From Eledone cirrhosa (taxonomy: Eukaryota): DNA of 64,000 nucleotides. Of this stretch, positions 966-60,930 are shown one piece after another. A program made the position numbers and the translations under genes. Position 1 is the stretch's first letter. The number at the start of each line of letters is the position of its first letter. Below the pieces are notes generated by a model that saw only the letters and a list, made by a program, of their open reading frames with translations, had not been told where the DNA came from and did no database searches. The stretch lies in contig OZ024742.1 in assembly GCA_964016885.1 (NCBI GenBank), forward strand, positions 258,788,001 through 258,852,000, read 5' to 3'.

Positions 966-1458
966 GTGAGAAATGAAATTTCGTTTCAATTTTTCCGTTT
1001 ATCGTTTTCGGTGGGCCTGGCCGATTAACTCACTCGATATGCAAATTAAGCTGCTCAGCCATTAATATGCATGAGGAAAGTATATACTTTCAGACGTTCA
1101 CTCTACTGGCAGGAAGGTATACGTTGCTGACGATAGCTAATAAGCTTGAAACTAGTACAGCGTTCCTTTGTCAGTGTTGAACAAATGAGCAACGATGGTT
1201 GCTAGACACTGTACGGCTTAATTCGGGATGTTTGTTTACAAACACACCGAGCATTATAATAAATGTTCGGTGAATTCATACGTACATATATATATGTGTG
1301 CATGTATGTATATATATATATATATATATATATATATATATATACATACTACTGTACGCCTGTATACATATATGTATGTACGTATACATACTTACATTTA
1401 AATAACAGCCGTACTAAAATTGAGAAATGAAATTACGTTTCATTTTTTTCCGTTTATA
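966..1458 (+). mobile_element. HHR-bearing non-coding repeat, family A (retrozyme-like or solo pLTR), ~1.1 units
   Basis: Terminal direct repeat gagaaatgaaatt.cgtttca.ttttccgttta at ~966 and ~1422; homologous to 30700-31459 and, inverted, to 14725-14900; 3' end runs into (TA)n. Confidence 0.8.
1111..1167 (+). ncRNA. Type I minimal hammerhead ribozyme (family A)
   Basis: cgttg-CTGACGA(1127)-t agct aata agct t-GAAA-ctag-TA-cagcg; helix I extends aggaa/ttcct; palindromic helix III ACTAGT; GUA site, cleavage predicted after 1157. Confidence 0.85.
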
Positions 1459-1627
1459 TATATATATATATATATATATATATATATATATATATATATA
1501 GTAATAATAATAAATGTGAAGACTAAAGTCCAAAGAGGGCTCGATAAGGGTAATATATATACAAAAATGTATAGAGCATAGAGTACAAAAATGTATAAAA
1601 CCATAGAGCAAATATTTCTTAAAATAA

Positions 1628-1735
1628 CAGATTATAGTTTAAGAAAAGAATCGCTGTTTCACCCTTAGCAGGATCATCAGAAGATCCCGTTAAGGGTGAG
1701 ACAGGGATTCTTTTCTTAAACTTTAATCTATCTGT
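1628..1735. repeat. Short head-to-head palindrome with an HHR-like core at its centre
   Basis: Minus strand reads CTGATGA tcc tgctaa ggg t GAAAc (1657-1680); plus arm is a decayed copy cagaagatcccgttaagggtgagac. Confidence 0.65.
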
Positions 1736-2534
1736 GGACTTTATGATCTTTCATAAGGACACCTGCATTTCATAAGCATACACTATTGTAATGAGAAAAA
1801 GTTATTAAATATATCACTAAAATGCTATCGGTATATTATATATATATATATATTTATTTATATATATATATATATATATATATATATATATATATATATA
1901 TATATATATATATATATATATATATATATATATATATATATATATATATATATATATATATATATATATATATGTATGTATGTATGTATGTGTATGTGGA
2001 TGTGTATGTATGTGTATGTGTGTACACATGGACTAGAGTATGTATGTATATATGTGTGTGTCTATACGTGTGTATATATAAAGATAAGTTGAGTATGAAA
2101 ATGTATACACATGAGCGCGTATGTATGTACATGAATACATGTGTGTATATATATGTGTATGCATGTGTATATATATGTAAGTATGAATATGTGAATTGTG
2201 AGTATATGTATTTTGTAGAGGTGTGCAAATATATTTGTGTGTGAATGCGTGGGTGAAAGAATACTACACTTGAAAGAAAAATTTAAGTCTGAATGTTAAG
2301 TGCAAACACAAAACCAACCACGCATATCTTTACTATCTCTAATCCTTCTATAGATTTAGAAAAATAACCAATAATATATTCTATAAAAAATGTCAAAACA
2401 ACAGATGGGAATCTAATTACTCACTGCCACCAAGAATTCTCACTGCTATCGAAAAACCACTCCTTCAACTATTCTTCTAACAACTTCACCCCTCCCTCCT
2501 AATATTCTCTATAAAAACTAAATAGGTCCTCAGT

Positions 2535-2658
2535 AATATTATTCTGATGAAATGACAGTAAATAATAACATTGAAATATTGAATGTCTGCATAACTAAAA
2601 GTTTGTAGATAGCTGTTTTAGGTTATGTAACTGTTATAGAAACACGTGTCAATAAATT
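2535..2658 (+). ncRNA. Hammerhead ribozyme with large branched helix II (5' pLTR)
   Basis: ttatt-CTGATGA(2544)-a atgacagt...actgttat a-GAAA(2639)-cacgtg-TC-aataa; GUC site; palindromic ACACGTGT. Confidence 0.75.
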
Positions 2659-2859
2659 CCTTTCAACTAAACTGTATCCATTCAAATCTTTCTATTTTTC
2701 TCCGGATTACTTTTGGAACTACAACTGGAACCGTCGAGCAAACTCTACGTGAGCTGATAATCTACTGTGTGTAATATTTATATTACAACACAACGGAAAA
2801 TACTGTATATTTACCTCCTGTAAAGTCGAGCAACCCACACAGCAAACGCAACCACAACA

Positions 2860-57833: not shown

Positions 57834-58133
57834 CTTTTTTTGTTTAATATAAGGAACTGTTTCATTGTTTTATTCATTATTTTTTTAATATTTTATCTTG
57901 ACTCTGTATTCCATTTATCTTTCACCGAAAGTGATTTTTGAATGCATCTCTTCTTTCCATGATATCCGGATTACATTGAGTTCTTCATACGGATTGGACA
58001 CTACCGTAAACTCTTGGTAGATTTATCTACATATATATATATATAATGTAGGAGGTGAGTTTTATTGTAGTACAATAAAGCAATGCAGATATCGGATAAG
58101 AAGCACTCTACAGTTTGTGGGACTGGAGTATGC

Positions 58134-58469
58134 ATAATATAAGATCAAAAAATGGTTAAAGGAGTTCCATATATTTTATTATGCGCATTTCAAAAACAAA
58201 CATCATCAAGCAATAATATTTGTGTTTTCATCAGATAAAACAGGAGAACATGATATGAAGGCTAAAAAACACTTGTTGATAGTGCAGTTTTAAATCAACA
58301 TATGTTGATTTAAAACTGCACTATCAACAAGTGTTTTTTAGCCTTCATATCATGTTCTCCTGTTTTATCTGATGAAAACACAAATATTATTGCTTGATGA
58401 TGTTTGTTTTTGAAATGCGCATAATAAAATATATGGAACTCCTTTATCCATCTTTTGATCTTATATTAT
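58134..58469. mobile_element. Almost perfect spacerless 336-bp palindrome with two intact divergent HHRs
   Basis: Axis at 58301/58302; gttttat-CTGATGA(58369)-long helix II-GAAA(58412)-tgcgca-TA-ataaaat; mirror core at 58228-58234. Confidence 0.9.
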
Positions 58470-58650
58470 ATATATATATATACCACCCCACTCTCAAGAG
58501 CGTGAAACTAATAAACCTTTGTTCGTAATGCCTCTCTGTTTTGTTCCCGTTCAATATTTTACTATATATATATATATATATATATATATATATATATATA
58601 TATATATATATATATATATATATATATATATATATGTATTTTATATATAT

Positions 58651-58840
58651 ACGAACAAGTATGACCCCGACGGCACAGCTCAAGCCGTTTCGAAGGCTAT
58701 TTCTGGAAATAGCCGTCGAAACGGCTTGAGTTTTGCTGTCGGGGTCATACTTTTTCATATTTCCCACTCTACTACCCTAAGTATTGAGTACTCCGGTGCG
58801 TTATGGTCCATCTGGTTCCTTACCACAATTCCTTTGTTAG
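58651..58840. mobile_element. Half-HHR palindrome family C, copy 3
   Basis: Centre ggctatttc tg gaaatagcc; same tail as the other two copies. Confidence 0.75.
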
Positions 58841-58874
58841 ATATATATATATATATATATATATATATATATAT

Positions 58875-60930
58875 CGTTTCTGAATTTGTTTATCAAGATG
58901 CTTTATCTGAAATCGTGTGTTGAAACCGATATTGTCATACTTTGGGAGGGTCATGTTGCCAATAAGAAACACACGCACCAGTAGCTTCCACTTCAATTTA
59001 TTATAAATTTGATAAATTTGATAAATTTGATAAATATAAATTCTATGGGACTCGTACTTAAACTTACATATAATAGGCCAGCAAGGGGCAGACCAACTAT
59101 CATTACTTCAATGGTCAAGAAAACTCACACATAAAGTTGGAACGGGTGGGCCAGAGACATACATATCTCCAAAAACCATGATATACTAAAGACGATGATC
59201 GCACATGCGGTGGGGGCCAGTATAAAACTAACCCTCAAAGAACATATGTTCAAATTTAATGGAAAAACATATGCCCAAGAGGAGGGAGCAGCCATTGGCG
59301 TTAGCATTGCAGGTGACATAGCTAACCTATTTATGGTATGGTTGGACAATAAACTTAAGAAAGAATTAGAAGACAACAATCTCTTAACCCTGATTATGTA
59401 CTCCCGCTGCGTTAATGATATAAATATCGTAGTAAAAACACCCCCACTAGAGAACTGTCAGGAATTAGAGAAATACACCATGGAAAGCATCCAGCAAATA
59501 GCTAACTCCATCCACCAAAGCATCACAGTTACTACAGACTACCCAAGCAAACAATCCAACTATCGATTACCTGCACTAGACACAGACCTCTGGTTAGAAA
59601 CCATTAATAACAAAAAATAAATCGTCCATTCCCATTATGCCAAACCCATGACTTCCAAATACCTGATCCATCGAAACTCAGCTGTTTCGGATCACATCAT
59701 AATCAATGTACGATTGCAGATTTGGTAAGGGTGGTGAGGAAAGTGTCGCGCATGTGCAACCCCAAAGTATTAGAGAGACACATACAACACTTCATCAATC
59801 GTATGCATTTCTCTGGCTAAAATCAGAGAGATAAAATCAGAGTATATAGATGAGCCAGAACCAAATGGGAAAAAATGGAAAATAATGATACAAATGGGAC
59901 CTGCCCCTTGTACAGGAGCAAATTTTGGAATAGAATAGAAAGAACTAGGAATAGGGTTAATAAAATAAACTCATTGTATGATAGTAATAAATACCAGAGT
60001 GTAATGTTCATCAATACAACCCCTAGAGGTGAACTAGCTTACCAATTTAGAAAGGGCCTTAGATAAACTTAAACTACATATTAAGATAGTGGAAAGACCA
60101 GGTACCTCCATAAAAACACTAATTAATAATGCATGCCCTGTATAGATAGGAAATGCATAATCTGTAAGCTAAGCATATTAACTGTAAGCATATTAACTGT
60201 AAGCATATTAACTGTAAGCATATTAACTGTAAAACTAGAAACATAGTATATAGCATAATATGTACTGAGGGACAATGCAAAAATAAGAATATAATATACA
60301 TAAGTGAGACAGCTGGTAGCATAGGAGAACGATTAAATGAACACTGGCGAGAACTCCAAGATAGAAAAGACTTATCAATACTCCACCAACATGCTAAAAT
60401 AGAACATAAGGGAAACATTAGAGAACATAGAGATAAAAATAGAATCTACACACAGAAAAGACGCAATGCTTAGACAAATCACAGAGGCATTAAACATTAA
60501 TGAACTCCAACCAAAATTAAATAGAAAACATGAATGGAATAGCAACATCACAACTTATAATTAAGGACAAAATGAAAACACACACATAGAACAAACAACT
60601 AACTAATAACATGTAAATAAACAAATAAATAAACAAATAAAAACACGCACAGGCACCCGGTGGTAACACATGCGCAAACTAAGCAGACAACACACAAAAA
60701 CAAGATGGCGTAGGACAGAACAAAGGAGAGGGACAAAACAAAGAAAAGAATCCGTAGTCACTGAATAGGTCACAGAATGTGTGACGAAAGAATTTTGAAA
60801 ATATATGAACAACCGTTCGGTTGTGGAACCAACCAACCAACCGGAAATTTATAAAATTTATAATAAATTGAAATGAAATAGGTGGTGAGTGTGTTTCTTA
60901 TTGGCAACATGACCCTCCCAAAGTTTAACA
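58875..60930 (+). mobile_element. Decayed PLE family F, longest copy, with short inverted pLTR
   Basis: FKFNGKTYAQEEGAAIG..IANLFM..YSRCVND..LPALD; GIY-YIG remnant ~60240-60540; ~58940-59030 is inverted relative to ~60850-60925; HHR-like core at 60761-60789. Confidence 0.85.

Follow-up and report, generated by a model that had tools for sequence, protein, structure and literature searches.

Penelope-like elements (PLEs) of the Hydra clade combine RWK/RWR, DKT and CxCx5C protein motifs, and also a GIY-YIG domain at the C terminus, with hammerhead ribozymes; they insert into (TA)n and carry an inverted, 5′-truncated copy and a one-sided tail (PMC8557442). The same traits recur in the elements described here, which are autonomous PLEs and numerous short inverted-repeat insertions (minis) in a stretch of the Eledone cirrhosa genome (the window: 64,000 nucleotides of contig OZ024742.1, positions 258,788,001 to 258,852,000 of the forward strand). 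In contrast to the Hydra-clade elements, the units here measure ~3.5 kb, the tails are ~74-140 nt long as opposed to 30-40 nt, and most insertions of one family (B) are ~190-bp palindromes with one fixed endpoint and a very high copy number. In Poseidon PAc, PLE protein extends both target strands in vitro from two fixed reverse transcriptase (RT) start sites that bound the tail; as in the elements of the window, the target is AT-rich and the ribozyme cut is not the copy boundary, whereas the pairing of one 3′ end of each kind and a 5′ run-off class do not appear in the accessible part of that report (PMC11167929).

Metazoan retrozymes outside the long terminal repeat (LTR) class are tandem repeats without coding capacity, each unit a few hundred bases long and bearing a single type I hammerhead, found as monomers to multimers (PMC7229834; bioRxiv 10.64898/2026.07.22.740005); this description also fits the non-coding units of the window, which differ in bearing the full PLE insertion signature of two fixed ends, head-to-head arrays, tail and (TA)n. 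The PLE origin of metazoan retrozymes has been argued from co-occurrence and homology to the pseudo-LTR (pLTR), with the mechanism left open (bioRxiv 10.64898/2026.07.22.740005). Already published are the tails and inverted pLTRs, the preference of Hydra elements for (TA)n, PLE hammerheads and opposite-strand hammerhead pairs 100-700 bp apart (PMC8557442, PMC4209133); the formation of PLE inverted repeats and tails, the role of the ribozyme and the mobilisation of animal retrozymes are treated as open in three sources (PMC8557442, PMC11167929, bioRxiv 10.64898/2026.07.22.740005).

The elements of the window are a real, genome-wide variant of known PLE biology and not a new element class. A retro-origin from PLEs is almost certain, and the explanation as a whole, in which the minis arose when PLE ends and non-coding hammerhead repeats were inserted into (TA)n, likely by twin priming, is considered probable. 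In L1 twin priming, two target-strand primers on one RNA produce an inversion; there the second site is variable and the arms rarely overlap, whereas here both sites are fixed and the overlap makes palindromes. Within the literature outside subscription journals and Repbase, no report was found of one inner and one outer 3′ end at each insertion, of a run-off class with a fixed stop, or of a PLE insertion signature in retrozymes.

Paired 3′ ends and variable palindrome centres

The genome sample consisted of 100 evenly spaced 10-kb genome stretches (1 Mb), from which four arms cut by stretch ends were dropped. The arms end at two fixed 3′ positions per family, an inner and an outer one (+61 and +140 in family B, +191 and +277 in A, +75 and +162 in H), each of them at a TA or AT dinucleotide step. 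The sample contains 43 head-to-head pairs, and all 40 that could be classified combine an inner with an outer end (21 in B, 11 in A, 8 in H); the same pairing was found in 7 of 7 cases in family G and 2 of 2 in J. The two arms have no sequence in common in 6 of the 43 pairs, the outer arm ends at most 10 nt from the inner site in five more, and the tail-bearing arm is often the shorter one within the shared region. The (TA)n flanks proposed in the initial annotation of this DNA were borne out, with a TA run on both sides of 81 of 95 two-ended insertions in a genome sample. Target duplications of 13-15 bp in the TA-rich flank occur in 4 of 95 insertions (L009, L017, L018, L083), not above control, and possibly reflect the stagger between two nicks; the duplication count does not exceed that of shuffled pairing (6 versus a mean of 1.9 and a maximum of 6), and (TA)n hides duplications.

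Palindrome centres are not common to the copies: 46 B minis, one of them unparsed, fall into 26 classes by their centre, several subfamily backgrounds are represented among the copies with the commonest centres, and both diagnostic sites are mirrored between the arms in 37 minis. The palindrome is not the inherited unit and is rebuilt at each insertion. A common centre that had emerged from full-element searches was rejected because the queries contained the centre; a search with the tail of family B alone returned for the most part palindromes whose centres differ, besides a few single arms and, in 4 of 30 cases, long copies. Haplotypes also present among 32 long copies are carried by 37 of the 46 minis, and four minis are singletons.

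Within the window, inverted-repeat elements with one-sided tails were confirmed at all 13 places where the initial annotation had named them, two of which need a corrected start, as the tails lie to the left of 1628 (1500-1628) and 58134 (58046-58134). They comprise more than one kind of family. The claim that PLE2 repeats their layout on a larger scale also stands: positions 8959-10021 are a 99.6% inverse of 12569-13631, the left side has a ~74-nt tail, and the 5′-truncated ORF (open reading frame) starts at 10018. Hammerheads pointing outward, as the annotation had described them, hold for both arms in only 2 of the 13 elements (51595, 58134), which have a full core in each arm; eight have a full core in one orientation only (1628, 6421, 14927, 18979, 19663, 46165, 56255 and 53768, the last a U3-A8 variant), and the family B minis at 53285, 53537 and 58651 have only the 3′ half of the parent's hammerhead, without a full core.

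Autonomous parents and non-coding hammerhead units

The hallmark of endonuclease-bearing PLEs, RT and, at the C terminus, a GIY-YIG domain in one ORF, was recognised by Pfam in the ORF at 61094, which has GxKF, DKG and Cx2-5CxxC motifs and is Neptune/Nematis-like; it does not fit the Hydra clade, where the N-terminal GxKF is absent. PLE1 and PLE2 have no Pfam match, yet both can be aligned to the parent of family B and contain YxDD and Y[IV]GxT motifs. The Hydra-clade motifs read RWK, DKT and CNCTYPDNC in PLE1 and RWR, DKT and CNCPDRSIC in the B parent, and PLE2 has the CxCx5C linker. Partial tandems (pLTRs), an inverted copy and a one-sided tail are found in the B parent (L091), PLE1 and PLE2. 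The direct repeats of PLE1 (1974-2692 and 5586-6304) are identical at 718 of 719 positions and enclose an ORF (2824-5181) with one internal stop; hammerhead cores occur in its pLTRs (2544, 6156) and in PLE2 (9032 on the minus strand, 12075 and 13546 on the plus strand), and the B parent is predicted to fold as a three-helix junction with a U3-A8 core, a described variant (PMC4209133).

The B parent is a full Hydra-type PLE of the form pLTR-ORF-pLTR, with its ATG ~95 nt past the tail and a 1.2-kb 3′ region; tandem arrays of family B have a period of ~3.53 kb. The B mini corresponds to the final 140 nt of the parent unit and begins within helix II of the parental hammerhead. Family A lies 1.5 kb downstream of the end of a Hydra-type endonuclease, family I ~1.0-1.1 kb downstream of a PLE ORF of the 61094 type at two loci, and family H adjoins PLE ORFs at two loci, family J at one. 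In two B copies (L127, L154) the same point just inside the ORF start is joined to a second copy that begins at +2 or +4, which suggests a preferred template jump or a third start site.

The initial annotation had offered two alternatives, extreme 5′ truncation of PLE insertions or a non-autonomous, ribozyme-flanked class. Each is true of different families, as B, A, I, H and probably J derive from truncated ends of PLEs, mostly of Hydra type, and D, E, F, N and P from non-coding hammerhead repeats; the palindrome is not what propagates, however, and the truncation is not random, several families such as B, G and J having a fixed 5′ stop. The second class is not ribozyme-flanked; its units are arranged head to tail with a single type I hammerhead motif each (D, 542 bp; N, 310 bp; P, 420 bp; F, 594 bp; E, 528 bp), which is the hallmark of the non-LTR retrozyme. 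The longest ATG frames in these units span 30-104 aa, and D, N, P and F gave no match to six PLE protein pieces. In many cases an arm is longer than a single unit; the arms terminate at two fixed sites, after which (TA)n follows, and the 5′ limits are scattered. Among 51 pairs, 43 of them classifiable, 41 combine an inner with an outer end (12 in D, 3 in N, 4 in P, 10 in F, 12 in E) and two, both in D, have two outer ends, where E pairs were read by eye and most loci came from searches rather than random sampling. The N array of the window has one type I motif per unit, an inner end on the left, an outer end on the right and (TA)n on both sides. Its units are identical, as are those at L205, whereas L240 has four variants in ten units; identity is compatible with rolling copy of a circle, and also with recent local amplification or assembly smoothing. 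From these structures the non-coding units are likely to be retrozymes for which PLE protein supplies mobility in trans; that their template was a circular RNA is given slightly better than an even chance.

The fixed 5′ stop and competing explanations

Among B arms of at least 85% identity that reach +13, 29 of 34 stop between -8 and +13, compared to 8 of 42 between +14 and +35 (Fisher p 8e-9); in family G, 16 of 21 arms stop between -3 and +15, and of the 10 minis that families A, B, C, G, H and J have in the window, 9 possess an arm ending at 0 to +7. The stop falls on a pyrimidine-A step in B, H, G, A, J and C. A copied cap would leave an extra G, as in other retrotransposons; in family J, 5 of 7 junctions carry a G supplied by neither the parent nor the partner arm (p 0.013). 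The Penelope promoter is internal to the pLTR (PMC2377424). Given the extra G of J and this promoter, the stop is read as the reasonably likely capped 5′ end of a transcript whose start would lie within the pLTR, a short distance upstream of the priming sites. At junctions of A (L065, L066) and J (L004), the first bases are repeated in short tandem arrays, which suggests that the RT may realign at the template end. The ribozyme cut site was rejected as the 5′ boundary: a long distance separates it from the stop in A and J, where it is the more downstream of the two, and the B arms that end close to it are 2 of the 48 sampled and those of two copies found by searching (L136, L153).

In the preferred explanation, PLE protein would cut both strands of a (TA)n microsatellite, and each cut end would prime copying of the same RNA from one of two fixed sites; the two copies would then be linked head to head, leaving the interval from one site to the other as the one-sided tail. 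The minis would be run-off "strong-stop" products of a transcript starting at the fixed stop, the non-coding units would be retrozymes that PLE proteins mobilise in trans, with circular RNA as a possible template, and the hammerhead motifs would cleave. Several observations weigh against this explanation. Family H shows the stop weakly (8 of 23), and in A it does not reach significance (2 of 4, p 0.09); family B has no overall excess of the extra G (7 of 44, with C commonest), and direct (TA)n junctions of B, G and H show it in only 3 of 7. The sequence at the stop of B, G and H can also be taken as a YAG preceded by pyrimidines, resembling a splice acceptor, and in B it lies in an extended helix II. 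The +1 position was picked from searched loci before it was applied to the sampled stretches, and BLAST ends are accurate to a few bases. No ORF was found near long copies of C (11 marker matches) or G (7), the PLE link of J consists of one locus, an autonomous partner was found for none of the non-coding units, and the two D insertions with two outer ends depart from the pairing. Five B minis share a common haplotype that is absent from the 32 long copies, and the association of centre with haplotype in B is borderline (p 0.064, n 18).

Self-priming or fold-back of a single nucleic acid strand, proposed for rotifer PLEs (PMC3846280), could account for the variants mirrored between arms and for the many centres that are near-perfect palindromes; however, the six pairs whose arms have no common sequence already contradict it where they occur; fold-back can produce neither these pairs nor the five in which the outer arm ends close to the inner site, and two primers on one RNA can. 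Fold-back also leaves no reason for a copy to end at a second fixed site, and it sits poorly with the frequent shortness of the tail-bearing arm. The one-of-each pairing and the non-overlapping arms thus favour twin priming, with both primers on one RNA, as the quite probable step, and make fold-back very unlikely; they agree with the two-site extension of both target strands by PLE protein in vitro (PMC11167929). That the whole palindrome is mobile, as a miniature inverted-repeat transposable element (MITE) of DNA type or as a fixed palindromic retro-element, is barely credible. The minis resemble MITEs in being short, with inverted repeats, TA flanks and high copy number, and the 40 top B matches (96-98% over 191 bp) and a centre that recurs in 20 G loci could be taken in the same sense; yet those searches had the centre inside the query, and among tail-only and sampled copies the centres are varied and single arms occur. 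A conserved interior between terminal inverted repeats, the MITE hallmark, is not what is seen: the ends are asymmetric, one of them being the tail, the centres vary, and the arms are the 3′ ends of retrotransposon parents. A short target-site duplication of fixed length is not apparent in the (TA)n, which would hide it. The initial annotation's view of retro-products that only look like MITEs is supported accordingly.

The fixed stop could also be a structure-induced RT stall or a splice-related RNA end, which would suit the YAG context in B, G and H, the helix II hairpin and the missing G excess in B; this is improbable, since the stop of J and C is at CATATG without YAG and that of A is 8 nt ahead of the YAG there, no exon sequence common to the families precedes the stop, the RT traverses the stronger helix III with few stops, and J has its extra G. 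About equally unlikely are minis that act as partners resembling short interspersed nuclear elements (SINEs), re-transcribed from an internal promoter in sense arm and tail, with the palindrome rebuilt in each round. The retention of +1 and both priming sites in the minis, the internal position of the Penelope promoter (PMC2377424), the far greater number of short than of long B insertions in the sampled DNA, the five minis with a haplotype of their own and the missing ORF link of C and G would agree with such a cycle; but the haplotypes shared with long copies and hundreds of candidate full-length parents make a separate mini master unnecessary, and the twin-priming step is common to both explanations. 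Doubtful, though less so, is a retrovirus-like PLE route, in which a dimeric protein would prime twice near the capped 5′ end, make strong-stop cDNA and sometimes jump to the RNA 3′ end, which the hammerhead would trim to the matching repeat. The B start site would fall inside the ribozyme, so that cutting would be left to the 3′ copy; jumps that fail would leave ~100,000 MITE-mimicking palindromes per family group, and the same protein would roll circular retrozyme RNAs, which lack a 5′ end, into head-to-head arrays.

Hammerhead density and further features of the window

The window contains 41 CTGANGA..GAAA cores, 11 of them in one 310-bp array, compared to 5.2 ± 2.0 (maximum 11) in 60 dinucleotide shuffles; the cores, whose density the initial annotation had called very high, are far above chance. 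With helices required, 8 motifs remain in the window versus 0.07 in shuffled sequence, and 91 in the 100 genome stretches versus 1-2, all of them lower bounds, as the structure descriptor is too strict and misses the motif at 20007 and that of the B parent. Loose cores outside the window number 150 in 600 kb sampled, versus 44-55 shuffled; the window is typical of the 3.0-Gb genome and not exceptional in hammerhead density. Among the best 150 of 296 Rfam matches of the window there was no hammerhead, and miRNA-like matches fell on TA/CA repeats or palindromes. Minimum-energy folds gave the three-helix form for B and not for H, G, N and F, whose motifs were read by eye. On the minus strand, 27625-27674 is a hammerhead motif related to those of A and J, with a second CTGATGA core nested in helix II. 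Family H has a conserved, hammerhead-like motif with a CAGAAGA core (U4 to A) in dozens of copies (e.g., L214, L237).

The sampled density of family-B-like insertions is ~44 per Mb (69 arms in 25 pairs and singles). Extrapolated from 0.03% of the genome, the totals would be ~1e5 B-like insertions and more than 2.5e5 structured hammerhead motifs. The genome is thus a very large natural record of PLE insertion and would be the footprint of a poorly understood process; predictions that can be checked by counting follow from it (priming from one site of each kind, at named positions, and a named start base), and it provides structural evidence for retrozyme-type repeats that use PLE integration. 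As a caution, annotation could mistake palindromes of this kind for MITEs or for miRNA hairpins.

Table 1. PLEs, mini-elements and non-coding hammerhead units of the window; arm stops are given relative to +1 of each family.
Feature	Position	Strand	Description
Family H mini	1500..1729	.	left arm bears tail; arm stops +4/+5
PLE1	1974..6304	+	near full-length Hydra-type PLE
Family A mini	6424..6736	.	arms asymmetric
Family I mini	7340..7559	.	family I also at 48741-50431
PLE2	8885..13631	+	left: tail and 1.06-kb inverted arm; Hydra-type ORF 10018-11667, 5′-truncated
Family D	14924..15565	.	head-to-head pieces of 542-bp non-coding tandem unit; hammerhead motif 15241+
Family C mini	18966..19484	.	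arm stops +14/+2
Family A mini	19661..20109	.	left tail; arm stops +13/+4
Family P	30706..31460	+	420-bp non-coding tandem unit, hammerhead motif; also 1002-1456, 14725-14901
Family N	32254..35519	.	head-to-head array of 310-bp identical units: ~3.5 antisense, 7 sense
Family E	46165..47450	.	~528-bp non-coding tandem unit: inverted arm and 1.8 sense units
Family A mini	51588..52056	.	both arms with cores; arm stops +1/0
Family B mini	53285..53480	.	+1 to +140 of a PLE of Hydra type, with +7 to +61 inverted; only half of the hammerhead
Family B mini, diverged subfamily	53536..53716	.	
Family F	53768..54340	.	pieces of ~594-bp non-coding tandem unit, U3-A8 variant core
Family G mini	56249..56443	.	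arm stops 0/+11
Family J mini	58046..58469	.	left tail; both arms stop at J's +1; both arms with cores
Family B mini, diverged subfamily	58649..58839	.	
PLE ORF, 764 aa	61094..63388	+	RVT_1 and GIY-YIG (Pfam)

More decayed PLE ORFs of two families lie at 28887-30665 and 36807-38117 (both on the minus strand), 58933-60930, 16851-17967 and 39609-40945; positions 58933-59019 are an inverted copy of 60845-60930. Further inverted-repeat elements were found at 25-487, 41045-41141, 39411-39585 and 6832-7270, the last of which, flanked by TA and with a hammerhead core at 7038, is probably a member of the same system. A degenerate, AT-rich tandem repeat of ~145 bp occupies 54758-55726. Finally, a dispersed repeat of ~190 bp, SINE-like by size and frequency, occurs at 7862-8051, 31941-32123, 41581-41781 and 54533-54712, and in 33 of 60 sampled genome stretches.

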